Shown here: positions 4,805 to 20,842 of the stretch, one piece after another
Layout: every line of letters starts with the position of its first letter
How positions within the stretch are numbered: position 1 is the stretch's first letter
From: an uncultured Methylobacter sp.
Lineage (GTDB): Bacteria > Pseudomonadota > Gammaproteobacteria > Methylococcales > Methylomonadaceae
Direction of reading: 5' to 3'
DNA: 42,766 nt
Assembly: GCA_964488195.1 (NCBI GenBank)
Contig: CAZAUB010000001.1
Coordinates: forward strand, 1 to 42,766
Made by a program: the position numbers and the translations under genes
The notes under the pieces: model-generated
What the model was told of the DNA's origin: nothing
The model's input: the letters and a program-made list of their open reading frames with translations, nothing else
Database searches by the model: none

Positions 4805-5874
4805 GTGAACGTTACGTACCCATTAACAAGGGCAATTACTCAATGGACACCTCAGAGAGGGAGGCGTTGTTTGAACAATATCGTGGAGAGGGTTGGGAAG
4901 CGCAATACCAAGATTACCGTAATAAATGGACTGAACTCGCCAAGACGCAGACGGTATCTGAGTACCCGCTTCTAGTGGATATAGAGCTCTCATCTGTTTG
5001 CAACCTCACCTGTTCGATGTGCTACACCATCACCGATGAATTTAAGCAGCACGTCAATGTCACCCGGATGGATTGGGAGCTGTACAAGAAGATTATTGAC
5101 GAAATCGACGGCAAGGTTCCGGCCATTCGCCTGAGCTTGCGCGGGGAGGCGACCCTGCACACAAAATTCATCGAGGCGATCAATTATGCAAAGGGTCACG
5201 GCATCAAGGAAGTTTCCTTGTTGACCCATGGCGGCAAGTTGACTCTGCCGTTTTTCCAGAAAATGGTGGAAGCGGGGGTAGACTGGATAACGATCTCGGT
5301 GGATGGCTTAGGCGAGACTTATGAGCGTGTGCGCAAGCCGCTGAAATTTGACGACCTGTTCAACAAAATAAAAGCCATCAAACAGTACAAGGAAGAACAC
5401 AAGCTGAAGCGCCCGGTCATTAAGGTGCAAGGCATCTGGCCTGCGATTGCTGAAAGCGGGCCCGATGCCTACTACAACACTTTCGCTCCCTATACCGATT
5501 TGGTGGCGTTCAATCCGCTGATTGACTACCTGTCCAACGATACCCATATCGAATACCTTGAAGAATTTACCTGTCCGCAACAATACCAGCGGCTGGTGAT
5601 AGGAGCCGACGGGCTGGTCATGAAGTGCTCAAACGATGAAGAAAATCGTGAAGTGATCGGCGACATCAAACAGGAAACCGTGCATCAGGTATGGCATGGC
5701 GAGAAGATGCAGGCGGTACGGAACATGCATCTGCAACCGCTTGGCTTCATGCAAAGCACGGTCTGCCGCAAGTGCTACCTACCGCGAGTGACCGAGGATG
5801 ATGTGGCTACGATTGGCGACAGAACATTCTTCGTAAAGAATTATATTCACCGTATTCAAGTAATAGGAAAGTAA
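4801..5874 (+). CDS. Radical SAM enzyme with SPASM/Twitch auxiliary Fe-S domain
   Basis: CNLTCSMC (CxxxCxxC), RGEATLH, ISVDG; C-terminal C-x17-C-x45-C-x2-C. Confidence 0.9.
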   Translation: MSERYVPINKGNYSMDTSEREALFEQYRGEGWEAQYQDYRNKWTELAKTQTVSEYPLLVDIELSSVCNLTCSMCYTITDEFKQHVNVTRMDWELYKKIIDEIDGKVPAIRLSLRGEATLHTKFIEAINYAKGHGIKEVSLLTHGGKLTLPFFQKMVEAGVDWITISVDGLGETYERVRKPLKFDDLFNKIKAIKQYKEEHKLKRPVIKVQGIWPAIAESGPDAYYNTFAPYTDLVAFNPLIDYLSNDTHIEYLEEFTCPQQYQRLVIGADGLVMKCSNDEENREVIGDIKQETVHQVWHGEKMQAVRNMHLQPLGFMQSTVCRKCYLPRVTEDDVATIGDRTFFVKNYIHRIQVIGK

Positions 5875-5877
5875 TCT

Positions 5878-6813
5878 ATGGGCACAGGCGACACATTGGA
5901 GCAGCTGCTCAACGTTTTTTGGCTTCGTCCGGAAACGGCACTTTGGCGCGAGATTGATATCAGAGCTATGAGTGCTTTTGAGATGCGCTCTCCGTCTCTG
6001 GACTTGGGATGTGGCGATGGCACATTTTCATTTATCCGGGCGGGCGGCGAATTCGACAGGAGTTTTGATGCTTTTCGTTCAGTATCACAGCTAGACCAGT
6101 TTTTCCAGAATGTCGATGTCTTCGATTCGTATGACGAGAGCCTGAGCTCGGCAGTAACAAAACCTCCGCGATATCAGATTGATGTTGGATTTGATCACAA
6201 AACAAATCTTCTCAAAAAGGCGGGACAGCTTGGTTTGTATGGAGCACTCAAGCAAGGGGATGCGAATCAACCATTGCCATTTCCAGATGCCTCGTTTAAT
6301 AGTATTTTTTCTAACATCGTATATTGGCTGGACTCGCCCCAGTTTGTGGTTTCAGAGATTTCCAGAATTTTGAAGCCTGGTGGGGTTGCTTGCCTGATGT
6401 TGCCGAATATTACATTTCCACAGTTCAGTTTTTATAACCAGCTATATGTGAAGGGTGGCGACGCTCGTTGGCAGTTTCTTGAGATGCTTGATCGGGGAAG
6501 ATTTGCCGACAATATTCGCCAAGCTAAATCTCAGGATGAATGGCAATCCATATTTGAACAAGCTGGGCTGCACATTGAACGCCACCATTCTCACCTGAGC
6601 AAACTCACCATCCAGGCTTGGGACATTGGTCTACGCCCCCTTTTCCCGGTTTTGCTTGAGATGTCGAATGAGTTGTCACCTGAAAAACTTATTTCTATAA
6701 AAGCCAAGTGGATACAGACAATGAGGGCTTTTCTTGAGCCACTGATAGAGATTGACAAGTCTCTTCCAGGCAATGAGCAACCGGCGTTCCACTGTTTCGA
6801 ATTGAGGAAATAA
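5878..6813 (+). CDS. Class I SAM-dependent methyltransferase
   Basis: LDLGCGDG motif I, GDANQPLPFPDASFNSI and SRILKPGG. Confidence 0.85.
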   Translation: MGTGDTLEQLLNVFWLRPETALWREIDIRAMSAFEMRSPSLDLGCGDGTFSFIRAGGEFDRSFDAFRSVSQLDQFFQNVDVFDSYDESLSSAVTKPPRYQIDVGFDHKTNLLKKAGQLGLYGALKQGDANQPLPFPDASFNSIFSNIVYWLDSPQFVVSEISRILKPGGVACLMLPNITFPQFSFYNQLYVKGGDARWQFLEMLDRGRFADNIRQAKSQDEWQSIFEQAGLHIERHHSHLSKLTIQAWDIGLRPLFPVLLEMSNELSPEKLISIKAKWIQTMRAFLEPLIEIDKSLPGNEQPAFHCFELRK

Positions 6814-6814
6814 T

Positions 6815-7831
6815 ATGTTCAAAAACTATCGAAGAGACCGTTGCTACATCATCGCCGAGATCGGCGGAAACTTCACCACATCAGACCAGGCCAAACGCCT
6901 GATTGATGCGGCGCATGGCTGCGGCGTGGATGCGGTCAAGTTGCAAACTTATCGCGCCGATACAATCACAAGCACCAAGGCTATCTTCGATATGGAGAAC
7001 ACAGGTGTGGTGTCGCAACATGACCTGTTCAGAAAATACGAAGTGGACGAAGCCTTGCATCACGATGTATTCAAGTATGCCGAATCCAAAGGCCTGGACT
7101 GGTTCTCCACCCCATCGCATTCGACCGATGTAGACTTGCTGGAAAAATGCGGTGTCGGCGCGCACAAGATCGGTTCGGATGATGCCGTCAACCTTCCCTA
7201 TCTTCGTTATGTCGCCCGCACTGGCAAGCCGGTGTTGCTATCGACCGGCATGTGTACGCTGGAAGAAGTGCGGGAATCGGTGGCTGCGATACTGGCGGAG
7301 GACAATGAGCAACTGATTTTGCTGCACGCCATCACCAGTTACCCGACCCATGCGGAGAACGTCAATCTGGCTGCCATGCAGACCTTGATGCAAGCTTTTC
7401 CGCAACTGGACATCGGTTATTCCGACCACACCCTGTCACCGATCGCCTGTTTGTGCGCGGTGGCCATGGGTGCGCGGGTGATCGAAAAGCATTTCACCTG
7501 GGACAAAAAAGCGGACGGCCCCGACCACGCGCTTTCCGCAGATCCGGCGGAAATGAAATGGCTGGTGGAGGCGGTGCGCAATTTTGAAATCATGCGCGGC
7601 TCCGGGATCAAACGTCCCGCCAACAGTGAGAAAACTACGCGGCGCAACAATCGCAAGAGCGTGGTGCTGAACCGCAATGTGAAAGCGGGAGAGCGCTTGA
7701 CCGAGCAGGATATCGCCGTCAAACGTCCCGGTTACGGTATTGGCCCAAAATACTTTGAGCAGGTCGTCGGGCGGACGGTAGCCGCAGACATGGAAAAAGA
7801 TGCCGTGCTCACCTGGAATGATCTGGCGTGA
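6815..7831 (+). CDS. neuB: Nonulosonic acid synthase (NeuB/SpsE family) with C-terminal SAF domain
   Basis: IIAEIG, DAVKLQ, FSTP, KIGS, LSTGM, SYP, GYSDH, EKHF, GPDH and SAF motif KRPGYGI. Confidence 0.9.
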   Translation: MFKNYRRDRCYIIAEIGGNFTTSDQAKRLIDAAHGCGVDAVKLQTYRADTITSTKAIFDMENTGVVSQHDLFRKYEVDEALHHDVFKYAESKGLDWFSTPSHSTDVDLLEKCGVGAHKIGSDDAVNLPYLRYVARTGKPVLLSTGMCTLEEVRESVAAILAEDNEQLILLHAITSYPTHAENVNLAAMQTLMQAFPQLDIGYSDHTLSPIACLCAVAMGARVIEKHFTWDKKADGPDHALSADPAEMKWLVEAVRNFEIMRGSGIKRPANSEKTTRRNNRKSVVLNRNVKAGERLTEQDIAVKRPGYGIGPKYFEQVVGRTVAADMEKDAVLTWNDLA

Positions 7832-8505
7832 GGGTTGGCGTCATCATACAAGCCAGAATAGGCTCGACCCGTTTGCCCGGCAAGGTATTGAAACCCATTG
7901 CGGGCAAGGCGCTGTTGGATCATGTGCTGGGTAGGTTGTCTCTGCTGGCATACCCGGTACAGATAGTGGTCGCCACCAGCGATATGCCGCAGGATGATGC
8001 TATCGCACAGCATTGCCTGTCCCGTGGTGTGGCGGTGTTCCGTGGCAACGAAACCGATGTGCTGGACAGATATTATCAGTGCGCTCGCGAGAACCGCTTT
8101 GCGCATGTCGTTCGACTGACGGCGGATAATCCGTTCACCGATATGGAAGAGTTACAGCGATTGATCGAGCAGCACTTGACCCAACGCAACGATTACAGTC
8201 ACTCTTTCGGTAGCATGCCGCTGGGCGTGGGGGCTGAAATTTTTACTTTCGCCGCGCTGGAGAAAAGCGCGCGGGAAGGTCATGCGCTCAATCACCGCGA
8301 GCACGTCAACGAATACATTCAGGAGAACCCGGATGTTTTCCAGATTGGTGTGCTGGAGGTGGTCGCAGCTAAACGATGCCCTGATTTGCGTTTGACGGTG
8401 GATACTGAAGATGACTATCAGTGTGTTTGTGCCATTGCCGAATACACGCCCAACCGATGGGTCGGTACCGAAGAGGCGATTAAATTTTGTTCGCATTCTG
8501 CATAG
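7828..8505 (+). CDS. Cytidylyltransferase (SpsF/NeuA-like CMP-nonulosonate synthetase)
   Basis: IIQARIGSTRLPGKVL, GNETDVLDRY, VRLTADNP, REHV and RLTVDTEDD motifs; GTG start overlaps the neuB stop. Confidence 0.88.
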   Translation: MRVGVIIQARIGSTRLPGKVLKPIAGKALLDHVLGRLSLLAYPVQIVVATSDMPQDDAIAQHCLSRGVAVFRGNETDVLDRYYQCARENRFAHVVRLTADNPFTDMEELQRLIEQHLTQRNDYSHSFGSMPLGVGAEIFTFAALEKSAREGHALNHREHVNEYIQENPDVFQIGVLEVVAAKRCPDLRLTVDTEDDYQCVCAIAEYTPNRWVGTEEAIKFCSHSA

Positions 8506-9440
8506 AAAGCTCCCATACGCGCGGTATGGGGCACTTTTACCGCGCGCTGAATCTGGCGGATGGACTGGCTGAAATGGGGCTGCCGTATACGTTTTATCTG
8601 AACGATCATGCCCCATCCCGGCAAATCCTCGCTGAGCGAGGCGTACCGCATCAGATAGTGAATCTGGAAGATTTCACCGGCAACTGGGAAGCGTCGCTGA
8701 TACAGCGGGACGGCATAACGTTGTGGCTGAATGACCGCCTCGATACTGATGTCCGTCATGCAGAAAAAATCAAAGCGGCAGACATTCCGCTGGTGACGTT
8801 CGATGACCGGGGAACGGGAGCGGCGTTGGCAGACTTGCATATTGCCGCACTGGCCTTCGATGCACAAGAACGGCTTGCGGGTGCCAAATTGTTGCGCGGT
8901 TCGGACTATCTGATACTGAACCCGCAAATCAGCGGCTACACGCGCCTGCGTAAGCAGCTTTCTAGTATACTGGTGACGTTGGGCGGTAGCGATACCTATG
9001 GTGTGACCGTCAAGGTGGTGCAGTTGCTGAAGGAAATGGGCCTGACGGTAACTGTCGTGGTGGGGCCAGGGTTCATGCATAGGGACATGCTGGATGAAGT
9101 ACTGACCGAGGATTTCACATTGAAGCGCGGCGTACCTTCCATGATCGAGGAATTCTATCACCACGATCTGGCGATCACTGGCGGCGGGATCACACCGTTC
9201 GAGGCCAACGCTTCCGGCCTGCCCTGCGTGGTGATAGCTAATGAATTGTTTGAAATGCCGGTCGCAATAGCCTTGCAGAAGCTGGGAGGCTCGCTTTTTG
9301 CCGGGCATCATGAATCACTGTCGCTCCCATTGTTCAGGACAGACTTGGCACTGGAGAAAATGAGTCAGGCCGGGATGCGCAATGTCAGCCTGCAAGGAAC
9401 ACGGCGCGTGATAGATGCGCTGCTGGAATTGGTCAAATGA
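8487..9440 (+). CDS. PseG/SpsG-like NDP-sugar hydrolase (GT-B fold)
   Basis: GMGHFYRALNLA, TFDD, LVTLGGSD, DLAITGGGITPFEA and GLPCVVI motifs; TTG start. Confidence 0.8.
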   Translation: MFAFCIESSHTRGMGHFYRALNLADGLAEMGLPYTFYLNDHAPSRQILAERGVPHQIVNLEDFTGNWEASLIQRDGITLWLNDRLDTDVRHAEKIKAADIPLVTFDDRGTGAALADLHIAALAFDAQERLAGAKLLRGSDYLILNPQISGYTRLRKQLSSILVTLGGSDTYGVTVKVVQLLKEMGLTVTVVVGPGFMHRDMLDEVLTEDFTLKRGVPSMIEEFYHHDLAITGGGITPFEANASGLPCVVIANELFEMPVAIALQKLGGSLFAGHHESLSLPLFRTDLALEKMSQAGMRNVSLQGTRRVIDALLELVK

Positions 9441-10141
9441 ACAAAAAAGTCGTCGTAATTCACCAGCCCGATTTTGCGCCTTACCTAGGTTTTTTTCATC
9501 GCTTCTTACATGCGGATTTTTATATCGCGCTGGACCATGTGCAATATGTGAACGGTAGCAGCCGCGCTTGGACGCACCGGGATAAAATCAAGACAGCGCA
9601 AGGCGAGAAGTGGCTAACGGTCAGCGTCAAAAAAGCTCCTCGTGATACCGCGATTAACCAGATCGAGCTTTCTACCGATACAGACTGGCGGCAGGATAAT
9701 TTGCGCTTGCTCGAACAGAACTACCGCAAAGCGCCCTGTTACAACGAACTGATGCCGGAGATCGAACGCTTATATGCCCGGCCATTCCACATGCTGCGCG
9801 ATTTCAACATGGCCTCAATCGAGATGCTGATGGACATGCTCGATGTGCGTATTCCCTGGGTGTGGTCGAGTAATCTTGATCCGGTTGGGACGAAAAACGA
9901 ATTGTTGGTGGACTTGTTGCAGAAAGTTTCTGCCACACATTATCTTTCTGGAGTGGGGGCGCGGGATTATTTTCAACCAGAACCCTTCGTCAAGAAAGGT
10001 ATCGAGGTGATCTGGCAAAACTTCACTCAGCCGGTTTATACTCAACAATTTGGTGAATTCCTGCCGTATTTGAGCGTACTGGATGTGTTGTTTAATCATG
10101 GTATAACGGCTTCGAGAGAAATACTGAGGAGAGGTGGATGA
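9437..10141 (+). CDS. WbqC-like family protein (putative aminoacyl/acyl transferase)
   Basis: IHQPDFAPYLGFF, LDHVQY, WLTVSV, YLSGVGARDY and LSVLDVLFN motifs. Confidence 0.88.
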   Translation: MNKKVVVIHQPDFAPYLGFFHRFLHADFYIALDHVQYVNGSSRAWTHRDKIKTAQGEKWLTVSVKKAPRDTAINQIELSTDTDWRQDNLRLLEQNYRKAPCYNELMPEIERLYARPFHMLRDFNMASIEMLMDMLDVRIPWVWSSNLDPVGTKNELLVDLLQKVSATHYLSGVGARDYFQPEPFVKKGIEVIWQNFTQPVYTQQFGEFLPYLSVLDVLFNHGITASREILRRGG

Positions 10142-10767
10142 ATATATTGGCTATCGGTGCACATTTCGATGACGTGGAACTTGGTTGCGGGGGAGCGTTG
10201 GCGCGCCACGCCCAGCAGGGAGATGACGTCTATGTATTTGTCGCTACGGTATCGGGTTTTTCTAATCAGTACAATCAAGCGGTGCGCACCAATGAATCTG
10301 CGCTCGAAGAGGCGCGTAATGCGATGGCGATTTTGGGGGTGAAAGAATTGCTGTGCGGCAATTTCAAGACGCTCGAAGTCGAGTTTGTGGATGTGCTGAA
10401 CATCGAGATTCTCAAGATTGTGCAGGAAAAGAAAATTGATCTGGTCTATACCCATTGGGCGGGAGACATCCACCACGACCATCAGGCTGTCGCCAAGGCT
10501 TCCCTGCACAGTTGCCGCCATGTGCAGAGAATGCTTATGTATCGCAGTAACTGGTATCACTCCACGATGGAATTCCGAGGGAATTTCTATTTTGATATCA
10601 CCGAATTCTGGCCGACCAAAGAGCAGGCGATTCGTGCACACGTCACCGAAGTGGATCGCACCGGTGAAAAATGGATCAGTTTTTTCAGGAACGAAGCAGA
10701 AAATGCCGGGCAAAAGATTGGTGTGCCTATGGCCGAGGTTTTTGAGGTGGTTAAGTTTCTTAACTAA
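10138..10767 (+). CDS. PIG-L/LmbE family N-deacetylase
   Basis: AIGAHFDDVELGCGG and DIHHDH metal-binding motifs; C-terminal AEVF. Confidence 0.88.
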   Translation: MNILAIGAHFDDVELGCGGALARHAQQGDDVYVFVATVSGFSNQYNQAVRTNESALEEARNAMAILGVKELLCGNFKTLEVEFVDVLNIEILKIVQEKKIDLVYTHWAGDIHHDHQAVAKASLHSCRHVQRMLMYRSNWYHSTMEFRGNFYFDITEFWPTKEQAIRAHVTEVDRTGEKWISFFRNEAENAGQKIGVPMAEVFEVVKFLN

Positions 10768-11966
10768 TGAAGACTTTTTTCCGCCTTATAGCAAAAATAA
10801 AGTTTGCAAATCCAAAAGCAAATAAAATTGCGATTCTCTATTCAGATGATTTCTGGCTTAGAAAATTAATTCTAAAAGATATGCTTGCAACAACTTTAAG
10901 TCTTTATCCAGAAGATTATAGAATTTATGTGACGCCTGTGTTGATAGGTCGTACATTGTTACGTTTAAGGTTGATTAATTGGCTTCAGATCCAAAAGAAT
11001 TTTTCCTTTAAAGAATTGTCCCGACAAATTTATGTTCAATATATTTTGGCATGTCTAGATCAAATAAAAGCTAAAGTTGTCCTGACAACAATTGATAATT
11101 CAAGTTTTTTTCATAATTTAAGTCGAATTGATAAAAAAAGGGTCTATTTCGCAATTCAGAATGGTACCAGAACGCTTGCTTGTGTGAGAGACTCGTTACC
11201 TTTACCCCCCCATCAGTTCTCTACCATTTTAATGAGCAATTTTTTTTGCTTTGGTCAAAGAGATATTGACCTGTTTGTTCGACATGGTCATAAAGTGGAT
11301 AATTATTTCCCAGTTGGGTCTTTGATTGGGAGTTATTATAAAAGCGTAGTTTCTGTTCCAAGTGCGAGACCGCAGTTTGATTTATGTCTGATTTCTCAGT
11401 GGCATGAACATTTCTTTAACGAGATAACTGGGGATGATTTTTCGGCGAATGCCTCCAGAAGGATTGGCGCGGGCATAAAGGGTTTGAATTCATTTGTGCT
11501 TCGTCTTTTGGAAGAAGCGGGCTTGAATTTGGTGGTTTGTCTGCGCAATGACCTTGATGACGCAGAGGTGTCTTTTTACAAAGATACTTTTGGGGATAGG
11601 GTGAGAATTGCTGAGTCTGACCGAAAGAATTTTTCTACTTACCGTGTTGCTGAGCAGAGTCGGCTTGTGATTGCGCTGAACTCAACTACACTTGCGGAAC
11701 TTTTTTCTTGGGGCCAGAAAGTGCTCTGGTGCAATGTGCCCAATGATGTCCATTATGAAATGGCAGAGGCCGACATTAGTTATTTTCATGGTGACGACTA
11801 CAATGCATTCAAGGTCCGCGCGTTGATGCTCCTGAAGATGCCTCAAGAAGATTATGAAATCCATACGCGTGATCGAGCCCGCTATATTAATAATTATGAC
11901 CCGACTACCCCCTCCTATGAAATTATTAGGTCGGCTGTAATCGCAAAGTTATCAAGCATAAATTAA
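10767..11966 (+). CDS. Surface carbohydrate biosynthesis protein, putative CMP-nonulosonate transferase
   Basis: IDNS, IQNG, FCFG, PVGS and ALNSTTLAE motifs resemble GT-B surface-polysaccharide transferases; AT-rich 5' part; sits at the end of module 1. Confidence 0.55.
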   Translation: MKTFFRLIAKIKFANPKANKIAILYSDDFWLRKLILKDMLATTLSLYPEDYRIYVTPVLIGRTLLRLRLINWLQIQKNFSFKELSRQIYVQYILACLDQIKAKVVLTTIDNSSFFHNLSRIDKKRVYFAIQNGTRTLACVRDSLPLPPHQFSTILMSNFFCFGQRDIDLFVRHGHKVDNYFPVGSLIGSYYKSVVSVPSARPQFDLCLISQWHEHFFNEITGDDFSANASRRIGAGIKGLNSFVLRLLEEAGLNLVVCLRNDLDDAEVSFYKDTFGDRVRIAESDRKNFSTYRVAEQSRLVIALNSTTLAELFSWGQKVLWCNVPNDVHYEMAEADISYFHGDDYNAFKVRALMLLKMPQEDYEIHTRDRARYINNYDPTTPSYEIIRSAVIAKLSSIN

Positions 11967-11986: not shown

Positions 11987-12985
11987 ATGTTTAACAATAA
12001 ATCTATATTAATCACCGGTGGCACTGGTTCCTTTGGTCACGCTTTTGTGCCAATGACGCTGGCCAAATACAACCCGCGTCGTCTAGTTATCTACTCGCGT
12101 GATGAAATGAAGCAGTGGGAAATGGCCAAGCTTTATGGTAACGACGAACGAGTACGTTTTTTTATCGGGGATGTACGCGATAAGGAACGACTCGCACGTG
12201 CGCTGAATGGTATCGAGTACGTTGTTCACGCGGCCGCCACCAAGATCGTACCGACGGCGGAATACAACCCATTCGAGTGCGTCAAGACTAATGTGATCGG
12301 TGCCATGAACCTTATTGATGCTTGCATCGACCAAGGGGTTAAACGTGTGGTGGCGCTATCGACCGACAAGGCCAGTAGCCCGGCGAATCTGTATGGCGCT
12401 ACCAAGCTTACCTCAGACAAGCTTTTTATTTCGGGCAACTCATACGCGGGCTTTGATGATACCCGTTTTGTCGTGGTGCGTTACGGTAATGTCATGGGCT
12501 CACGAGGTTCGGTGATCCCGTTCTTTTTGTCACTCGCCGACAAAGGGGTGTTACCGATTACCGATGAGCGCATGACCCGCTTCATGATCACCTTGGAGCA
12601 GGGCGTGGATCTCGTTTGGCATGCCTTCGAGGATATGGTCGGCGGCGAAATATATGTGAAGAAGATTCCTTCCATGAAGGTGACAGATATCGCCCGCGCA
12701 ATTGCGCCCGATGCGGGGCATGATATCGTCGGCATCCGCCCTGGTGAAAAGCTTCACGAGCAGATGATTGGGACAGAAGATGCGCTCTATACGTACGAAT
12801 ACTCCGAGCACTTTAAAATTCTTCCGGCCATTCACAATTGGAGCAACGACCCATATCGCATCAAGGATGGCAAGAAGGTGACCGAAGATTTCACTTACTG
12901 CTCGGACAACAACCCAGAATGGATGAGCATTGAAACGCTAAAAGCGTGGATCACGCAAAACCGTGAAAAAGTCGGCAAGATATGA
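11987..12985 (+). CDS. pseB: UDP-N-acetylglucosamine 4,6-dehydratase (inverting)
   Basis: ITGGTGSFG, YSRDEMKQ, FFIGDVRD, AEYNPFE, LSTDKA, YGATK, RYGNVMGSRGSVIP, MTRF and GIRPGEKLHE motifs. Confidence 0.95.
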   Translation: MFNNKSILITGGTGSFGHAFVPMTLAKYNPRRLVIYSRDEMKQWEMAKLYGNDERVRFFIGDVRDKERLARALNGIEYVVHAAATKIVPTAEYNPFECVKTNVIGAMNLIDACIDQGVKRVVALSTDKASSPANLYGATKLTSDKLFISGNSYAGFDDTRFVVVRYGNVMGSRGSVIPFFLSLADKGVLPITDERMTRFMITLEQGVDLVWHAFEDMVGGEIYVKKIPSMKVTDIARAIAPDAGHDIVGIRPGEKLHEQMIGTEDALYTYEYSEHFKILPAIHNWSNDPYRIKDGKKVTEDFTYCSDNNPEWMSIETLKAWITQNREKVGKI

Positions 12986-14151
12986 CGGCAATGATTCCTT
13001 ACGGTCGCCAAGATATTTCCGATGTGGACATACAAGCGGTTGTGGAAGTCCTGCGTTCCGATTACCTAACACAAGGCCCGGCAGTTCCCGCTTTTGAAAA
13101 AAGCCTCGCTGACTATTGCGGTACGCAACATGCTGTTGCCGTGAACAGCGCCACGAGTGCACTGCACGTTGCCTGTTTGGTGCTAGGCGTAGGGCCAAAC
13201 GATGTGGTTTGGACTACCCCGATTACTTTTGTGGCCAGTGCAAATTGTGCCCTCTATTGTGGTGCGGGGATCGATTTCGTGGACATTGATCTGCGTACCT
13301 ACAACATGAGTGTTGAGCGTCTGGCAGAAAAACTGGGACATGCAGAAAAGATCGGCAACCTACCCAAAGTCGTGATTCCCGTGCATCTATGCGGACAGCC
13401 CTGCGATATAACAGGTATTCACCTACTCAGTCAACAATACGGCTTCAAGATTATCGAGGATGCATCACATGCGATTGGTGGCAAATATCGCGGCGAAGCG
13501 ATCGGCAACTGTCGTTACAGTGACATCACTGTATTTAGCTTCCATCCGGTCAAGATCATCACCACGGGTGAAGGGGGCATGGCCATGACTAACGATGCAC
13601 AGTTGGCGAAGCGCATGCAGTTACTGCGCAGTCACGGCATTACCCGTGACGTGAACGAGATGACTCATGCGCTGGATGGGCCTTGGTACTACCAACAAAC
13701 TGATCTTGGCTACAACTACCGTATGACCGACTTGCAGGCTGCATTGGGCCTGAGCCAAATGAAGCGATTGGATGAATTTGTCGCTAAGCGTCACGCCATC
13801 GCCAAGCGATATGATCAGCTTTTGGCTAATCTGCCGGTGATTTTGCCATGGCAGCATGCGGACAGCTATTCCGGTTTGCATCTGTATGTGATTCGTTTGA
13901 ATCTCGGAGAGATTGGCAAAGCACACCGTCAAGTGTTTGAAGCATTGCGTGCAGCAGGCATCGGCGTGAACTTGCACTACATTCCGGTGTATCGGCAGCC
14001 GTACTACGAAGGATTAGGTTTTCAGGTTGGACATTGCCCGGAGGCGGAGCGATATTATACGGAAGCAATTAGCTTACCAATGTATCCCGGATTAACCGAA
14101 GAACAACAGCTTCAAGTGGTGTGCGCATTGGATATGGCAATCCAAGGATGA
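12982..14151 (+). CDS. pseC: UDP-4-amino-4,6-dideoxy-N-acetyl-beta-L-altrosamine transaminase
   Basis: IPYGRQ, LTQGP, NSATSALH, EDASHA, FSFHPVKIITTGEGG, LRSHGI and NYRMTD motifs. Confidence 0.95.
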   Translation: MTAMIPYGRQDISDVDIQAVVEVLRSDYLTQGPAVPAFEKSLADYCGTQHAVAVNSATSALHVACLVLGVGPNDVVWTTPITFVASANCALYCGAGIDFVDIDLRTYNMSVERLAEKLGHAEKIGNLPKVVIPVHLCGQPCDITGIHLLSQQYGFKIIEDASHAIGGKYRGEAIGNCRYSDITVFSFHPVKIITTGEGGMAMTNDAQLAKRMQLLRSHGITRDVNEMTHALDGPWYYQQTDLGYNYRMTDLQAALGLSQMKRLDEFVAKRHAIAKRYDQLLANLPVILPWQHADSYSGLHLYVIRLNLGEIGKAHRQVFEALRAAGIGVNLHYIPVYRQPYYEGLGFQVGHCPEAERYYTEAISLPMYPGLTEEQQLQVVCALDMAIQG

Positions 14152-15017
14152 GATTGGCCCTCGGTGCAGTCCAGTTCGGCATGAACTACGGAATCGCTAA
14201 CCAAGATGGACAAGTTTCTGTTGATGAAGCCAAAGCCATCATTGAGTTTTCACGCGCAAGCGGCATTGACACGCTTGATACCGCGATTGCCTACGGCGAC
14301 AGCGAGAAGCGGTTGGGAGAGGTTGGCATTCAAGATTGGCAGGTTGTGTCAAAGCTGCCAGCCATTCCAGAAAATTGCCGTGACATCACGCAATGGGTTA
14401 CGGATACTGTTAACGAATCCATGCAACGGTTGAAAGTCAAAAATTTATATGGCCTGTTGTTGCACCGACCGCAACAACTTTTAGAGCAAGAGAGCGACCA
14501 GCTCTATCGTGCCTTGCAGCAGCTAAAATACGAAGGCTTAGTACAAAAAATCGGTGTCTCGATTTATGCCCCTTCAGAACTGGATGCACTTTGTAGTCGC
14601 TTTAAGTTCGACCTTGTCCAAGCACCCTTTAATGTTATAGATCGCCGTCTGATTGAAACAGGCTGGTTGACCCGTTTGGCGGAGCAGGGCACGGAATTGC
14701 ATGTGCGTTCGGTTTTTTTGCAGGGTCTGCTTTTAATGAGACCAAGTGATAGGCCTCAAAAATTTGCCCGATGGGACGTCTTTTGGTCAAAATGGGATGA
14801 ATGGCTTGCGCACAATGGGTTGACGCCATTGCAAGCCTGTCTCTGTTACGCCTTGTCATTTCCGCAAATCGGAAAAGTCATCGTCGGTGTCGATAGCTTG
14901 CCGCAGTTGAAAGAGATACTTATGGCTATGGCAGGCCCATCACCGAAAATCCCAGATGGACTAAGTATCAGCGACATTAATTTAGTGAATCCAGCAAATT
15001 GGGCGGCGCTCACCTAA
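14148..15017 (+). CDS. Aldo/keto reductase family oxidoreductase
   Basis: Start MRLALGAVQFG at 14148 (ATGA overlap with pseC); LDTAIAYG, VSKL, LLLH, KIGVSIY and RSVFLQG motifs. Confidence 0.88.
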   Translation: MRLALGAVQFGMNYGIANQDGQVSVDEAKAIIEFSRASGIDTLDTAIAYGDSEKRLGEVGIQDWQVVSKLPAIPENCRDITQWVTDTVNESMQRLKVKNLYGLLLHRPQQLLEQESDQLYRALQQLKYEGLVQKIGVSIYAPSELDALCSRFKFDLVQAPFNVIDRRLIETGWLTRLAEQGTELHVRSVFLQGLLLMRPSDRPQKFARWDVFWSKWDEWLAHNGLTPLQACLCYALSFPQIGKVIVGVDSLPQLKEILMAMAGPSPKIPDGLSISDINLVNPANWAALT

Positions 15018-15065: not shown

Positions 15066-16067
15066 ATGTCTATCGAAATCATCGCCGAACTAGCTCAGGG
15101 GTTTGAAGGTCGCTCAGAGCAGGCTCGCCTGCTGCTGAAAGCGGCGGCGGCGGCAGGAGCTGATGCAGCTAAATACCAACTTGTGTATGCAGATGAATTG
15201 GCTACTCCAGACTATAAGTACTACGAACTTTTTCGTTCTCTTGAAATGACCGATGATGTCTGGAAAGGGTTGGCGACATATGCAGCGGAGTTGGGTATTC
15301 AGTTACATGTAGATATTTTTGGGACGCGCAGCCTACAATTGGCTGAGCGAATTGGTGTGGCGGCCGTGAAGCTTCATGGCACCGATATTGCCAATCTTGG
15401 CCTATTAAACGCGGTTGCAAACAGTTCGATAAAAAGAGTGCTGTTGGGCGCGGGAGGTGCTTTTTACAGTGAACTTCAGCAAGCCATAGATATTCTTTCA
15501 AGCAAAGAGGCGATTGTTCTTCTTGGCTTTCAGGGCTATCCAACCCCTAATGAAACTAACCAAATAGATCGTGTCCGCTTATTGGTGGAGCGCATTGAAC
15601 GCACACATACGAATGTGTCTATCGGGTTTGCTGATCATGCGCCGCCGGAAAGTCCCTTGCGTTATGCTTTAGCAGCAACGGCTATAGGTGCAGGTGCAAA
15701 GGTGCTTGAAAAGCACCTAACCCTGGGACAGGTCATGAAGCTGGAAGACCACGAGTCAGCTCTGAATCCCGATGAATTTTTAGAGTTCACTCAGACCATT
15801 CGGGATTGCGCCCAAGCTTTGGGAGGTGCCGCAGACATCGAGGACTTCGGAATGTCCGAGGCTGAGCATGCTTATCGCAAGATGATTCGTCGGCATGTGG
15901 TATCAAGCCGAGATATTGAAAAGGGTTCAAAAATTGCCCCAGCCGATCTGGTTCTCAAGCGCACATCGTCCGAGCAAGTCATTACAGACTTGGCCTCGGT
16001 TTATGAGAAAACGCTTAAGCGCGAGATTCAACAAAACACACCAATTTTACCTGCCGACATTGATTAA
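15066..16067 (+). CDS. Divergent NeuB-family protein with SAF domain and degenerate PEP-binding motifs
   Basis: IIAE, GADAAKYQ, YPT, GFADH, LEKHLTL, DHESAL and RRHVV are retained; STP, KIxS, STGM and SDH are replaced by VDI, KLHG, GAGG and ADH. Confidence 0.85.
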   Translation: MSIEIIAELAQGFEGRSEQARLLLKAAAAAGADAAKYQLVYADELATPDYKYYELFRSLEMTDDVWKGLATYAAELGIQLHVDIFGTRSLQLAERIGVAAVKLHGTDIANLGLLNAVANSSIKRVLLGAGGAFYSELQQAIDILSSKEAIVLLGFQGYPTPNETNQIDRVRLLVERIERTHTNVSIGFADHAPPESPLRYALAATAIGAGAKVLEKHLTLGQVMKLEDHESALNPDEFLEFTQTIRDCAQALGGAADIEDFGMSEAEHAYRKMIRRHVVSSRDIEKGSKIAPADLVLKRTSSEQVITDLASVYEKTLKREIQQNTPILPADID

Positions 16068-16079
16068 AGTGATTCCATA

Positions 16080-16841
16080 ATGAAAAGACGTCTTGTAGCT
16101 GCCATCGCTTGTCGTAACCAGGGGGCGCGCCTTTACGGCAAGCCGATTCAGAATCTGGATGTAGAAAATGGTGCGCGAATAATTGATAACATTGTTGAAT
16201 GCTTGAGAACAATTGATTGCATTGATGAGATAGTTCTTGGCATTTCAGAGGGTATCGAAAATGATGTGTTTAAAATCATCGCGGAAGAGAAAGGTCTTCG
16301 TTACGTTGTTGGTGACCAAATTGATGTGTTATCGCGGCTTATTAAATGCGGGCAGCTCGCAGGTGCAACCGACATTTTTCGTGTAACCAGTGAATCCCCT
16401 TTTCTTTATTTTGAACCCGTTGAAGAGTTATGGCGTCTTCACCAAGAAGAAAAGGCGGATGCGATTTTCATGGATGATGTTATTGACGGATGCGGATTTG
16501 AAATCATTTCTTTAAAAGCTCTGGAAGAGTCGCACGCAAAGGGCGATAGAAAACATCGCTCCGAACTTTGTACGCTGTATATTCGGGAGCATCATCAGGA
16601 ATTCAAGATCATCAAGCCGGAACCGCCGATTGAACTGGTTCGCAAAGATTTGAGGTTGACAGTAGACAACCCGGAAGATTTGGCAGTATGTCGAATTGTG
16701 TTCGGCGCATTCAAGGGGAAAGCCCCGAGAATTCCGGTTCCTGAAATCGTCAAATATCTAGATGCGAATCCAACGCTGATCGAGCTGATTTCACCTTTTA
16801 CCGAAACCGGGTATGCAACGATGTATCGTTGGGGTGAGTAA
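16080..16841 (+). CDS. Cytidylyltransferase (SpsF-like; likely fills the PseF role)
   Basis: IACRNQGARLYGKP, GDQIDVLSR, RVTSESPF and LRLTVDNPEDL motifs. Confidence 0.83.
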   Translation: MKRRLVAAIACRNQGARLYGKPIQNLDVENGARIIDNIVECLRTIDCIDEIVLGISEGIENDVFKIIAEEKGLRYVVGDQIDVLSRLIKCGQLAGATDIFRVTSESPFLYFEPVEELWRLHQEEKADAIFMDDVIDGCGFEIISLKALEESHAKGDRKHRSELCTLYIREHHQEFKIIKPEPPIELVRKDLRLTVDNPEDLAVCRIVFGAFKGKAPRIPVPEIVKYLDANPTLIELISPFTETGYATMYRWGE

Positions 16842-16867: not shown

Positions 16868-18208
16868 ATGGATAAAATGATGAACAAGATAACAAACTAC
16901 CAGAAATCCAAAGAATTTTCAGCGAGAGTTCATGACCTGATACCTGGCGGCGCACATACTTATTCCAAGGGTGATGATCAGTTTCCGCTCAATGCTCCGG
17001 CAGCAATTACCCATGGTAAGGGAGCTCACGTGTGGGATCTTGATTGCAACGAGTTTATTGATTGCAGCATGGGGTTAACATCGGTTTGTATCGGTCACGG
17101 ATATGAGCCTGTCGCACAAGCTGTTTGTGAGGCGGCGTTTGGGGGTACCAATTTCCAGCGACCAGCCGCAATCGAGTTGGAGGCTGCCAAGATATTCCTC
17201 GAAACCGTTCAGTCCGGGGACATGGTGAAGTTTGCTAAAAACGGCTCCACAGTTACGACTGCTGCAGTCAAGCTGGCGCGCGCTTATACCGGACGTAATC
17301 GGGTTGCTATCGCACGCGAACACAATTTCTTTAGTTACGATGACTGGTTCATTGTCACCACGCCCTGTGATCGAGGCATTCCATCCAGAGTGCGCGAGAT
17401 GACTGCGGTGTTTAGTTACAACAACTATGAATCGGTCGAAGCATTGCTTGCCGACAACGACCATGACATCGCCTGCTTGATAATGGAGCCGGTGAAATTC
17501 GAGCCACCCAAGGATGATTTCCTGCATAAGGTTGCGGCTCTGTGCAAGGATCGCGGTGTGCTCTTGATTCTTGATGAGATGATTTCTGGCTTCAAATGGA
17601 GTTTGCAAGGGGCGCACAACTATTACGGGGTCAAACCCGACATGGCGACCTGGGGCAAGGGTATTGCTAATGGGTTTTCGGCCTGTGCACTGACCGGGCG
17701 TGCCGATATCATGGAATTAGGCGGTATCCGGCGTGAAGGGGATGACAAGCTATTTCTGATCTCAACGACTCATGGTGCCGAGACCACAGGTCTTGCTGCC
17801 ATGATTGCCACCATCAGGGAATTCAAACAGCACAATATGATTGAGAGCAACTGGGCGAGGGGCGAGGCCCTAAAGCAGCGTCTTGAACAGATTGTGCACA
17901 ATCATGGGTTGGAAAATTCGTTGCAACTGCTTGGTTATCCCTGTCTATTCGTGTTGGTATGCCGTAATTCCGCAGGTGTGCCGGATGATGCGTACCGAAC
18001 CTTGATGATGCAGGAAATGATTGCGCGGGGCGTATTGTTTCAGGGGATGTTTTATCCTACTTGGTCGCACCAGCAACCGGAGATGGATCATCTTGCCACG
18101 GCCTTTGATGAGTCATGTGCCATATACCGTAACGCTATTGATATCGGTTCTACGGATAACCTGTTGATCGGTCGGCCTGCCAAGCCGGTTTTTCGTAAGA
18201 TAATTTAG
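16868..18208 (+). CDS. Class III PLP aminotransferase (glutamate-1-semialdehyde aminomutase/KdnA-like)
   Basis: IPGGAHTYSKGDDQFP, GKGAHVWD, KFAKNGS, LILDEMISGF and TWGKGIANG (catalytic Lys). Confidence 0.88.
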   Translation: MDKMMNKITNYQKSKEFSARVHDLIPGGAHTYSKGDDQFPLNAPAAITHGKGAHVWDLDCNEFIDCSMGLTSVCIGHGYEPVAQAVCEAAFGGTNFQRPAAIELEAAKIFLETVQSGDMVKFAKNGSTVTTAAVKLARAYTGRNRVAIAREHNFFSYDDWFIVTTPCDRGIPSRVREMTAVFSYNNYESVEALLADNDHDIACLIMEPVKFEPPKDDFLHKVAALCKDRGVLLILDEMISGFKWSLQGAHNYYGVKPDMATWGKGIANGFSACALTGRADIMELGGIRREGDDKLFLISTTHGAETTGLAAMIATIREFKQHNMIESNWARGEALKQRLEQIVHNHGLENSLQLLGYPCLFVLVCRNSAGVPDDAYRTLMMQEMIARGVLFQGMFYPTWSHQQPEMDHLATAFDESCAIYRNAIDIGSTDNLLIGRPAKPVFRKII

Positions 18209-18254: not shown

Positions 18255-19784
18255 GTGGATAATATCGGTAGACAAGGTGTGAAAAATATTGCAATTCGGG
18301 TCGATGCTTCAAGCCAAATCGGTACTGGGCATTTCATGCGCTGCCTGACCTTGGCTGATGGCTTAAGGCAGCGAGGCGCGCGGATTCGTTTTGTTAGCCG
18401 CCATCTGCCTGAATATCTGAGCGACATGTTGATGGACAAAGGGCATGAGATATTGCTGTTCGATAGTGTTAAAAATAATGCGGAAGTGGATGAACTTGCA
18501 CATTCTCACTGGCTTGGAGTTAGCCAAGCACAGGACGCAGCAGATTCTATTGAGGTGCTGTCAGATGTGGATTGGCTTATTGTGGATCATTATGCACTGG
18601 ATGCGCGATGGGAAAGCGCCTTGCGCGGAACTGCCAAAAAAATCATGGTCATCGACGACATTGCCGACCGTCAACACGATTGCGATGTGCTGCTGGATCA
18701 GAATTTATATACAGACATGCAGACTCGCTATACCGGCAAAGTTTCATCCTCTTGCCAATTATTGTTGGGCCCACGTTATGCTTTACTGCGGGATGAGTTT
18801 CGAAAGTTGCGCGAACAAGTTAATCCACGCACAGAGCCAGTCAAACGAATTTTGGTATTTTTTGGTGGTGTAGATGCTGATAACTACACTGGCCTTGCTA
18901 TAAAGGCATTGGTGGAATTGAAGACAAAAGGACTACATATCGATGTAGTGATAGGTGCGCAGCATCCGTGTCGTGTAGAGATTGAGGCAAGCTGTGCTGA
19001 GCAAGGATATGTTTGTCATGTGCAAACCAATCGTATGGCCGAGTTGATGGCGGTTGCTGATCTGGCGATTGGTGCTGGTGGATCCGCTAGTTGGGAGCGT
19101 TGTTGTTTGGGGTTGCCCACTTTAGTCATTTCTACGGCGGATAATCAGCAAAGACAGGTTGCTGATGCTGCATTAGATGGCTTGCTGTGTTCCCCAGAAA
19201 TCAAGGGTGACTTGATTCAAGCGTTCCAAAGGCATATTAGCGCGCTGATTGAGAATAGATATCTAAGGCAGATGATTTCGTGCAATAGCATGCATGCAGT
19301 AGATGGTCGAGGCGTGTTACGGGTCATTGCAACCATTGGGTGCAGTGATATAGAGATTCGGACTGCAAGATCAGAAGATTCAGAAAAATTATTTCAATGG
19401 CGTAATCACTCTAGTATCAGGGCGGTTTCACGCGACGCTAACTTGATCGATTGGCAGGTTCACCAGAGATGGTTTACTTCTATGCTGAGAGATCCAGAGA
19501 AAATACTGCTCATTGGACAGCGTGTGGAATCTCCCGTCGGGGTGGTTCGCTTCGATGTTCAGAATGATGAGGCGGAAGTTTCGATTTATCTTGTTCCGGA
19601 TGGCGCGTCCTCTGGACAAGGGCGAAGTTTACTGCAAAGCGCTGAGCAATGGCTTGTAGCCAACCGCCTAGGGATTCGTAAGATTCGTGCGCATGTGCTT
19701 GGGGTAAATGTGCGTTCACAAAGGCTATTTGTTGGTGCGGGCTATCAAGTTGAGTCCACCAACTATTCAAAGAGGCTGCATTGA
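18255..19784 (+). CDS. pseG: PseG UDP-2,4-diacetamido-2,4,6-trideoxy-beta-L-altropyranose hydrolase fused to a PseH-like GNAT acetyltransferase
   Basis: RVDASSQIGTGHFMRCLTLA, VDHY, VIDD, FFGGVD, GAGGSASWER, ADNQ; C-terminal WRNHSSIR...HQRWF...GVVRFD GNAT domain. Start may be GTG at 18279. Confidence 0.9.
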   Translation: MDNIGRQGVKNIAIRVDASSQIGTGHFMRCLTLADGLRQRGARIRFVSRHLPEYLSDMLMDKGHEILLFDSVKNNAEVDELAHSHWLGVSQAQDAADSIEVLSDVDWLIVDHYALDARWESALRGTAKKIMVIDDIADRQHDCDVLLDQNLYTDMQTRYTGKVSSSCQLLLGPRYALLRDEFRKLREQVNPRTEPVKRILVFFGGVDADNYTGLAIKALVELKTKGLHIDVVIGAQHPCRVEIEASCAEQGYVCHVQTNRMAELMAVADLAIGAGGSASWERCCLGLPTLVISTADNQQRQVADAALDGLLCSPEIKGDLIQAFQRHISALIENRYLRQMISCNSMHAVDGRGVLRVIATIGCSDIEIRTARSEDSEKLFQWRNHSSIRAVSRDANLIDWQVHQRWFTSMLRDPEKILLIGQRVESPVGVVRFDVQNDEAEVSIYLVPDGASSGQGRSLLQSAEQWLVANRLGIRKIRAHVLGVNVRSQRLFVGAGYQVESTNYSKRLH

Positions 19785-20842
19785 AAATGACAGAAGTATT
19801 TAAAATTGCTGGCCGGCTAATCGGTCGAGGGCACAAACCATTTATCATCGCCGAGATGTCTGGCAATCATAACCAGTCGCTGGAGCGGGCGCTGGAAATC
19901 GTCGAGGCGGCCGCCAAGACGGGTGCTCACGCGCTGAAGATTCAGACTTATACGCCCGACACCATGACGCTTGATCTGGATGAGCGCGAGTTTCATATCA
20001 GCGACCCCAACAGCCTGTGGGCAGGTAAGTCTCTTTACAAGCTTTACGGCGAAGCCTATACCCCATGGGAATGGCACAAGCCGATTTTCGATAGAGCGCG
20101 TGAACTGGGCATCATTCCGTTCAGTACGCCATTTGACGACACGGCAGTGGACTTTCTCGAAAGTCTGGATGTGCCGTGCTACAAGATTGCGTCTTTCGAG
20201 AATACTGATTTACCGCTGATTCGTCGCGTGGCTGCCACCGGGAAACCTCTGATCATCTCTACCGGCATGGCCACGGTGGCCGAATTGGATGAGACTGTGC
20301 GAGCTGCTAGAGAGGGGGGATGCAAAGACCTTATCCTGCTCAAGTGCACCAGCACTTACCCTGCCACGGCAGCGAACACCAATATTTTGACCATCCCACA
20401 TCTGCGCGAGCTGTTCGGCTGCGAAGTGGGCTTGTCCGACCACACGATGGGTGTGGGTGTCTCGGTAGCCAGCGTAGCACTGGGAGCAACCGTTATCGAA
20501 AAGCATTTTACCCTCAACCGTGCAGATGGCGGGGTAGACAGCACCTTCTCGATGGAGCCTACCGAGATGGCGCAACTGGTGGTGGAGTCCGAACGAGCCT
20601 GGCAGGCACTGGGGCAGGTGAGCTATGGCCCCTCCGAGGCTGAAAAGAAATCACTTCAGTTCCGTCGTTCACTGTATGTAGTGCAAGACCTCAAAGCCGG
20701 TGATGTGTTGACGTGTGAGAATATGCGTACGATTAGGCCGGGGTTAGGTTTGCCGCCAAAGTATTTCTACACGCTATTAGGATGTCGGGTGAATCAGAAT
20801 GTGAAGAGGGGTACTCCGATGAAGTGGGAGCTGGTAACATGA
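19781..20842 (+). CDS. pseI: Pseudaminic acid synthase
   Basis: IAEMSGNHNQS, KIQTYTPDT, TPWEWH, STPFD, YKIASFE, STGMA, KCTSTYP, GLSDHT, EKHF, DSTFS and RRSLY motifs. Start may be ATG at 19787. Confidence 0.95.
   Translation: MKMTEVFKIAGRLIGRGHKPFIIAEMSGNHNQSLERALEIVEAAAKTGAHALKIQTYTPDTMTLDLDEREFHISDPNSLWAGKSLYKLYGEAYTPWEWHKPIFDRARELGIIPFSTPFDDTAVDFLESLDVPCYKIASFENTDLPLIRRVAATGKPLIISTGMATVAELDETVRAAREGGCKDLILLKCTSTYPATAANTNILTIPHLRELFGCEVGLSDHTMGVGVSVASVALGATVIEKHFTLNRADGGVDSTFSMEPTEMAQLVVESERAWQALGQVSYGPSEAEKKSLQFRRSLYVVQDLKAGDVLTCENMRTIRPGLGLPPKYFYTLLGCRVNQNVKRGTPMKWELVT

Follow-up and report, generated by a model that had tools for sequence, protein, structure and literature searches.

The closest described systems are the NeuB, PseI, LegI, and SpsE synthases, whose reference structures we take to be N. 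meningitidis NeuB (1xuu/2wqp), C. jejuni PseI (8h2c), and B. subtilis SpsE (1vli). In the N. meningitidis enzyme, S154 and S213 presumably contact the phosphate of PEP, and we assume the roles of S154, S213, K53, and T285 to be those known from work on 1XUZ. Positions 110, 129, 131, 132, 182, and 184 are described as surrounding PEP in NeuB (PMC7371886), and E25, E134, E234, F288, and R314 are named elsewhere, with E134D reported to be a common variant (PMC8208679). NeuB sequences serve to predict the nonulosonate of a microbe, and the clade described here would mislead such predictions.

We analyzed a 42,766-nt stretch of contig CAZAUB010000001.1 (hereafter, the window) containing an open reading frame that we named NeuBX (Table 1). 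NeuBX is a member of the NeuB family at the level of fold, scoring above threshold for Pfam PF03102 (120 versus 22 bits) and for the SAF domain (27 versus 21 bits). Its AlphaFold model (pLDDT 91.9, pTM 0.83) had only NeuB proteins among its top structural matches and shares their barrel and SAF domain at a Z of about 29-30. In contrast, NeuBX is 21-25% identical to the described synthases, falls far under the NCBIfam equivalog cut-offs for NeuB (150 versus 400 bits; TIGR03569) and PseI (116 versus 340 bits; TIGR03586), and requires a neighboring canonical synthase. KDO8P and type I-beta DAHP synthases belong to the same barrel superfamily (Z 22-23) but have no SAF domain, whereas NeuBX has one.

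Table 1. Genes of the NeuBX cassette and notable NeuBX residues, in window coordinates (equivalent N. meningitidis NeuB positions in brackets)
Feature	Position	Strand	Remarks
PseB + PseC	11987..14151	+	each over its NCBIfam cut-off
Aldo-keto reductase (AKR)	14148..15017	+	usually precedes NeuBX, though not obligatory; D/Y/K/H tetrad conserved
NeuBX	15066..16067	+	NeuB-fold, 333 aa, TIM barrel + SAF domain; Pfam NeuB 120 bits
D83 (T110)	15312..15314	+	acid in 273/282 family members, S/T in none
K102-L-H104-G105-T106-D107 (K129-I-G131-S132-G133-E134)	15369..15386	+	2wqp alignment
G128-A-G-G131 (S154-T-G-M)	15447..15458	+	2wqp alignment
G154-F-Q156 (C182-T-N184)	15525..15533	+	Q in 282/282
A189-D190-H191 (S213-D214-H215)	15630..15638	+	serine lost, first metal histidine kept
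E215-K-H217 (E234-x-H236)	15708..15716	+	second metal histidine kept
Y270 (T285, linker)	15873..15875	+	Tyr in 282/282; canonical synthases variable there
R299 (R314, SAF domain)	15960..15962	+	2wqp alignment
CTaseX, divergent SpsF-type cytidylyltransferase	16080..16841	+	constant partner; many relatives fuse NeuBX to it
Class III aminotransferase (GSA-aminomutase-like, PRK06209)	16868..18208	+	frequent neighbor, exchanged independently of NeuBX
PseG-PseH fusion	18255..19784	+	PseG over cut-off (NCBIfam)
Canonical PseI (KIASFE)	19781..20842	+	507 vs 340 bits cut-off

The NeuBX frame is uninterrupted, starts 48 nt past the AKR stop, and ends 12 nt before the cytidylyltransferase start. With NCBIfam and Pfam models, the local gene order was resolved as PseB, PseC, AKR, NeuBX, CTaseX, class III aminotransferase, PseG-PseH, and PseI. 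The canonical PseI anticipated by the original prediction is present, and it is the likely source of the NeuBX substrate. This cassette is set in a large cluster for surface polysaccharide that contains three genes of the NeuB family, and no others were found in the 74%-complete genome. Promoter and terminator scans of the sequence found no more sites than in shuffles (13 versus 16.5 and 7 versus 10.1, respectively). A second nonulosonate set occupies positions 4801-11966 of the window and comprises radical SAM, methyltransferase, NeuB1, ordinary SpsF, PseG-like, WbqC, PIG-L deacetylase, and LA_1612 genes. The same set is found beside an AKR-NeuBX cassette in loci L006 (NeuB1 93% identical) and L175 (84%), a recurrence suggesting that the two travel together.

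We mapped the residues of NeuBX by alignment to 2wqp, with residue numbers counted by hand. By this mapping E8 corresponds to E25, D83 to T110, G105 to S132, D107 to E134, G128 to S154, A189 to S213, H191 to H215, E215 to E234, H217 to H236, D228 to D247, and R299 to R314. In N. meningitidis numbering, NeuBX carries the changes T110D, G131H, S132G, G133T, E134D, S154G, C182G, N184Q, S213A, and T285Y, and it keeps E25, K53, Q55, K129, H215, E234, H236, D247, and R314. Both metal histidines are present along with the equivalents of E25, E234, D247, and R314, and none of the four positions T110, S132, S154, and S213 holds Ser or Thr. A conserved hydroxyl, T106, sits one residue past the lost S132. 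The PseI-type Phe at the C2-specificity position is absent; this position is T106 in NeuBX and T, S, or A in 278/282 family members. The original prediction had contrasted the motifs VDI / KLHG / GAGG / ADH of this copy with STP / KIGS or KIAS / STGM / SDH in the other synthases of the window, and a three-way alignment reproduced the contrast. Among the motifs it had listed as kept, AE, KxQ, DH, EKH, and the later DH are indeed there, but the RR pair (275-276) belongs to the linker and first SAF strand, and the equivalent of R314 is R299. Judged from its residues, NeuBX does not qualify as a canonical PEP synthase, yet it is a NeuB member by fold.

NeuBX has many relatives. Of 7998 candidates scored in a word-based search, 1263 matched at E<=1e-30, with identities of 69-93% for the best 120; at the same threshold, a full HMMER search against 50% representatives found 251 matches. 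Scanning GTDB revealed 66 NeuBX loci in many bacterial phyla and archaea. The distribution is patchy: within the phylum of the window, a sample of 400 genomes yielded at least 2 with NeuBX (of four matches at E<=1e-70, two proved canonical when inspected), and within its family a sample of 200 yielded at least 1. Plasmid and phage collections gave no NeuBX match at E 1e-30 and 1e-15, and a first metagenome scan was empty. For a nonredundant family set, 509 aligned domains were reduced to 284 below 70% identity and, after removal of two canonical sequences, to 282. In a FastTree phylogeny, a branch with support 99 separated 198 NeuBX-type rows from 57 canonical rows, the latter drawn from NeuBX loci only and sampling canonical diversity in part. 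By this phylogeny, NeuBX is one conserved bacterial and archaeal clade, and in alignments it can be recognized by the short signature D/E110, G-x-Q184, Y285.

The original prediction had favored a new function over decay in this intact frame, and the single clade, purifying selection, and invariant new residues all agree with it. Comparison with 12 related loci yielded pN values of 0.15-0.27 and saturated pS values of 0.66-0.82, and dN/dS was 0.09-0.13 in the 3/12 pairs where it was computable, which answers the selection check that had been proposed. The poor scores against curated NeuB and PseI models might suggest a decaying duplicate. However, we regard that explanation as extremely improbable, and rejected it, because the frame is intact, evolution is not neutral, the word-based search gave 1263 matches, and NeuBX-type rows of the tree form one clade. 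NeuBX belongs to a widespread, unstudied NeuB offshoot, probably with a new reaction. Databases label its members, hundreds of proteins, as ordinary sialic or legionaminic acid synthases. We found no description of the subfamily in full-text literature, a search in which subscription journals were mostly uncovered, and the supplementary trees and logos of PMC8208679 may contain the clade unnamed.

Conservation within the pocket was uneven. H191, H217, Q156, and Y270 were invariant in 282/282 members, confirming the expectation that the metal site is retained, and G154 and E215 (281 each), E8 and D228 (280 each), and R299 (279) were nearly so. Position 83 was Asp in 247 members, Glu in 26, another residue in 9, and Ser or Thr in none. 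Relative to the described synthases, the family as a whole differs by T110D/E, G131H, C182G, N184Q, T285Y, usual loss of S213, and labile S132 and S154. Of these changes, T110D/E, N184Q, and T285Y form a fixed signature, accompanied by the usual loss of S213, and are not the random substitutions that would have pointed away from a new function. The 94 canonical NeuBs of the same loci had Ser at the 132 and 213 positions in every case, and at the 110 position had Ser or Thr in 89, Ala in 5, and an acid in none, which argues that the NeuBX pattern is not due to chance.

Loss of all four hydroxyls, as stated in the original prediction, describes the sub-clade of the window but not the family. No hydroxyl remained in 85/282 members, three remained in 11/282, and four in 0/282, as compared to all four in 49/54 canonical rows. 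Two of the four survive in about half of the family, with Ser or Thr at position 105 (S132) in 157, 128 (S154) in 152, and 189 (S213) in 22 of the 282. We therefore rejected complete hydroxyl loss as a family-wide trait. On the tree, the hydroxyl state changes at least 31 times at S132, 26 times at S154, and 14 times at S213. The 132 position is Pro in 35/282 members, the 213 position is Glu in 3/282, and the E134 position is non-acidic in 28/282. Fusion proteins were all of NeuBX type (68/68) and kept Ser or Thr at the 132 position in 57/68 and at the 154 position in 67/68, implying that part of the family could still bind phosphate.

The charge of the pocket was lowered. K36 and K102 were each kept in 272 members and replaced in 10/282, never both together, and no member (0/282) had both lysines without a compensating acid. 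Among the nine members lacking an acid at position 83, either a lysine was lost (five Q36 and one F102) or E189 was gained (three). These exceptions represent three independent events on the tree, making for a clean but thin signal. Canonical rows had both lysines in 93/94 cases and the acid in none. That the PEP pocket never holds two unneutralized lysines, unlike in canonical synthases, supports loss of phosphate recognition on grounds other than those of the original prediction. We also considered a class I (Schiff-base) pyruvate aldolase, which requires one invariant catalytic lysine; neither lysine being invariant, this candidate was not supported, which argues instead for metal chemistry. 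One sub-clade (L162-L164) has Gln for K36, no acid at position 83, and a NeuA-like rather than SpsF cytidylyltransferase nearby. In L163, the gene upstream of NeuBX encodes a DapA/NanA-family lyase.

GTDB loci were found with NeuBX patterns alone, whereas metagenome loci came from a fusion query and are biased accordingly. Among the 66 GTDB loci, CTaseX was present in 55, the aminotransferase in 54, AKR in 53, another NeuB in 50, PseC in 49, and PseB in 36. Across both sources, a cytidylyltransferase was fused to or directly downstream of 112/132 NeuBX ORFs, with 9 at contig ends. A canonical synthase lay within the flank in 66/70 loci of at least 14 kb; in the other four, the locus was truncated, the genome carried one at another site, or the flank held a short barrel-only NeuB. 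For the 16 GTDB loci without a canonical synthase in the flank, most of them on short contigs, a match above 200 bits existed elsewhere in 10 genomes and in none of the remaining 6. The constant core is NeuBX, the cytidylyltransferase, and a canonical synthase. The conserved synteny foreseen by the original prediction is supported, with AKR and the aminotransferase as frequent members. Both were missing from 10/70 long NeuBX loci and cassettes also exist without NeuBX, so we rejected them as obligatory partners. Conversely, NeuBX was found in 0/15 stretches around sugar-type aminotransferases in a class sample, although three of these (L104-L106) held AKR, SpsF, aminotransferase, PseG, and synthase together.

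The three core genes usually occur in equal numbers. The ratio of NeuBX to canonical synthase to cytidylyltransferase was 1:1:1 in 31/39 GTDB loci of at least 18 kb holding both synthase types and in 16/23 metagenome loci of at least 14 kb. In the window it is 1:2:2, the second pair belonging to the separate NeuB1-SpsF-PseG triad. One natural protein (P0163) joins canonical NeuB, NeuBX, and SpsF in that order. A single-chain model of a natural fusion (pLDDT 92.5, pTM 0.74) was not counted as interface evidence. The constant canonical synthase, the single cytidylyltransferase, and this triple fusion point to one activated product, and by this gene content NeuBX looks like an in-line pathway step, linked to the activating enzyme, rather than a parallel synthase. 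Over 42 loci, divergence of NeuBX tracked that of CTaseX (rho 0.76) and AKR (0.68) more than that of the canonical synthase (0.42), while CTaseX tracked the canonical synthase at 0.29 and the adjacent aminotransferase at 0.07; the pairs are not independent and we claim no P value. Since NeuBX and AKR are also highly correlated, adjacency explains part of this signal. CTaseX retains nucleotide- and metal-binding motifs, yet forms its own subfamily. Other natural fusions are Gfo/Idh/MocA + GNAT + NeuBX (P0167), GNAT + NeuBX (P0197), and NeuBX + SpsF + GT2 (P0251).

As read from the alignments, NeuBX keeps its metal- and sugar-binding residues and its PEP pocket is rebuilt. We consider it somewhat probable that NeuBX catalyzes a reaction of some kind independently of PEP. 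Our more specific prediction, which is tentative, is that the substrate of NeuBX is the free nonulosonic acid from PseI and that the enzyme, using no PEP, is a retro-aldol/aldol C4 epimerase preceding activation by CTaseX. With the metal and sugar contacts kept and the phosphate contacts not, the simplest chemistry would be reversal and re-formation of the C3-C4 bond to give the C4 epimer. The keto acid would bind in open-chain form, the metal holding the C4 oxygen and the remaining lysine(s) the carboxylate. The bond between C3 and C4, which is the one made by NeuB enzymes, would then break to leave bound pyruvate enolate and aldose, and its remaking on the opposite face would invert C4. D83, Q156, and Y270 of the partner subunit may provide acid/base catalysis and positioning, although the Asp lies by the substrate-carboxylate site and could plug that site instead. 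The product in this cassette would be 4-epi-pseudaminic (L-gluco) acid, which CTaseX would then activate.

Among the evidence in favor of a C4 epimerase, metal- and sugar-side residues are nearly invariant while the S132, S154, and S213 positions drift, and the partners include both Pse-type synthases (Phe in 46/86 loci) and others, as expected of a step at a carbon common to all. A mechanistic analogue is the L-ribulose-5-phosphate 4-epimerase AraD, which performs metal-dependent aldol-type C4 epimerization on a different fold and substrate, and with which we claim no homology. Its bases are an Asp and a Tyr from the neighboring subunit. The aldol mechanism of AraD is mentioned in PMC12531865. 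If the prediction is correct, bacteria and archaea would convert pseudaminic- or legionaminic-type sugars to their 4-epimers using NeuBX and a CMP-transferase, which would fill in a missing route to nonulosonates of the 4-epi and L-gluco types, extend the PEP-aldolase barrel to a new reaction, and offer a tool for making rare sialic-acid analogues. The fullest version of the prediction is doubtful: that NeuBX would be the first NeuB-fold enzyme to dispense with PEP, a metal-dependent retro-aldol C4 epimerase forming a two-gene plug-in with a dedicated and often fused CMP-transferase, where a protein carboxylate replaces the charge of PEP and a partner-subunit tyrosine acts as catalyst.

Alternatively, NeuBX could remain a PEP-dependent synthase with a phosphate pocket remodeled from K102, H104, T106, Q156, the metal, and the glycine backbone, and could use a modified aldose to make a nonulosonate that is itself modified or a second one. 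The rest of the active-site residues are kept, some members hold up to three of the four hydroxyls, most fusions hold two, and NeuBX has its own cytidylyltransferase like an ordinary synthase. The beta-3 acid also occurs in KdsA motifs, where that of KDO8P synthases falls in register with the NeuBX Asp by a weak HHalign alignment of canonical NeuB to KdsA (36%, E 6e-5). An Asp at the 110 position alone does not exclude PEP use, because by this weak alignment PEP-using KDO8P synthases show one in the matching motif. One NeuBX domain also matched a DAHP-synthase HMM, so the Asp may be an ancestral feature and not a gain. The NeuBX profile itself did not align meaningfully to KdsA by HHalign, and the Arg/Lys phosphate ligands of KDO8P and DAHP synthases presumably correspond to glycine or serine in NeuBX. 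We find a PEP-dependent synthase unlikely given that a canonical synthase is almost always alongside and a single cytidylyltransferase serves both, and given that Pro132, Glu213, loss of either lysine, and a non-acidic 134 position fit PEP chemistry poorly. It is less likely again that NeuBX is non-catalytic, either a heterodimer subunit retuning PseI through trans-acting Y270 and R299 or a scaffold passing sugar to the cytidylyltransferase. NeuB forms homodimers, and the site of each subunit is completed by SAF-side residues of the other (PMC8208679). The near-invariance of Y270 and R299, the constant co-occurrence with canonical synthase, and the tandem NeuB-NeuBX-SpsF fusion, which could form an internal pseudo-dimer, would all suit such a partner. 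However, the barrel of NeuBX itself keeps its metal histidines in 282/282 members along with E8, E215, D228, and a new invariant Gln. Co-divergence with the canonical synthase was also below that with the neighboring genes, and the canonical synthases that accompany close NeuBX relatives range from 31 to 87% in identity to the PseI of the window.

The same residue and charge evidence that suggests a C4 epimerase would also suit other chemistry on the keto acid, namely a pyruvate-releasing lyase for recycling or proofreading, or a C3-C4 dehydration followed by reduction by the neighboring oxidoreductase. Immediately upstream of NeuBX there is usually a gene for a redox enzyme (AKR in 65, radical SAM in 8, and Gfo/Idh/MocA in 4 of 132), but AKR and the aminotransferase can both be absent from long loci, and fusion to an activating enzyme favors the biosynthetic direction. 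We know of no natural 4-deoxy nonulosonate, which counts against the dehydration route, and we consider such keto-acid chemistry quite as unlikely as a non-catalytic role. Slightly more improbable is that NeuBX acts upstream of PseI as a metal-dependent epimerase or isomerase of a neutral six-carbon aldose, with D83 plugging an unused PEP site. Acid/lysine compensation fits a protein carboxylate in place of that of PEP, the net charge of the pocket is zero in some members, and the conserved residues are those on the aldose side. Against action on the aldose, the cytidylyltransferase tracks NeuBX and not the synthase, and the Pse-type Phe of most partner synthases selects an unchanged C2 (PMC7371886), making C2 epimerization unneeded.

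Returning to the predicted C4 epimerase, gluco/manno and talo/galacto nonulosonates differ at C4. Sugars of such configurations exist (PMC7371886, PMC12940168, and PMC3210612). Natural C4 epimers include 4-epilegionaminic acid and also fusaminic acids of L-gluco configuration, for which the gene cluster is called "not investigated" (PMC7371886). No link emerged between a NeuBX locus and any organism whose 4-epi sugar is known; Priestia was the one name among 20 clusters, fusions were named from archaeal MAGs only, and Atlas held generic NeuB clusters. In PMC3694923, a table of divergent L. pneumophila Sg6 genes lists AKR, a cytidylyltransferase, a GSA-type aminotransferase, and one NeuB. This gene set resembles the NeuBX-less PseB-PseC-AKR-SpsF-class III aminotransferase-PseG-PseI cassettes of L104-L106, which have the same neighbors and order as NeuBX cassettes, and another parallel is an AKR-SpsF fusion in Vibrio B9-25K2 (PMC7371886). 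They differ in having an ordinary SpsF (QARM..RLP.K, RLTGD) where NeuBX cassettes have CTaseX (ACR..RLYGKP.Q, R.T.E.P). L. pneumophila non-Sg1 strains reportedly make 4-epilegionaminic acid. Together with the Sg6 genes, this implies that 4-epimers can probably also arise by redox routes that lack NeuBX, which counts against the prediction. AKR and the aminotransferase may add a side-chain amino group. Flexibacter maritimus reportedly contains a pentadeoxy nonulosonate (PMC4052302), for which we found no link to NeuBX-cassette genes. Acinetaminic and 8-epilegionaminic acids depend on add-on epimerizing steps, with extra genes attached to the core pathway changing stereochemistry, as PMC7371886 describes for acinetaminic acid. 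The add-on steps for acinetaminic and 8-epilegionaminic acids are said to use oxidoreductases on the CMP-sugar and no NeuB-fold protein. Passages of PMC9796276 do not tie the Tenacibaculum cluster to the NeuBX-cassette genes, and PMC7874193 makes no mention of aldo, semialdehyde, cytidylyl, or spsF.

Several loci departed from the arrangement of the window. An RmlD-like reductase is present in 24/66 GTDB loci (e.g., L043:928-1902), in many cases as a PseC fusion or lying between PseB and PseC; it is missing at that place in the window and could give a 7-hydroxy sugar. L140 and L148 share the order AKR, gluconate-5-dehydrogenase-like SDR, NeuBX-SpsF fusion, RmlD, NeuB, PseB, which we take to resemble the Fusobacterium nucleatum cluster. 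PseC and PseG were undetected in the flanks of L030, L050, and L060, which have a Gly-type canonical synthase. L054:14567-16982 has neither CTaseX nor canonical NeuB in its flank, where another cytidylyltransferase and an HMGL-like aldolase are found. Short barrel-only NeuBs with DH and EKH motifs kept occur in L141, L142, and L147, while odd NeuBs of ~243 aa with no SAF domain and with DH and EKH motifs not in the usual form occur at L154:1816-2547, L155:11801-12532, and L157:901-1623. The class III aminotransferases fall into types ~30, 50, and 80% identical to that of the window and are swapped independently of all neighbors.
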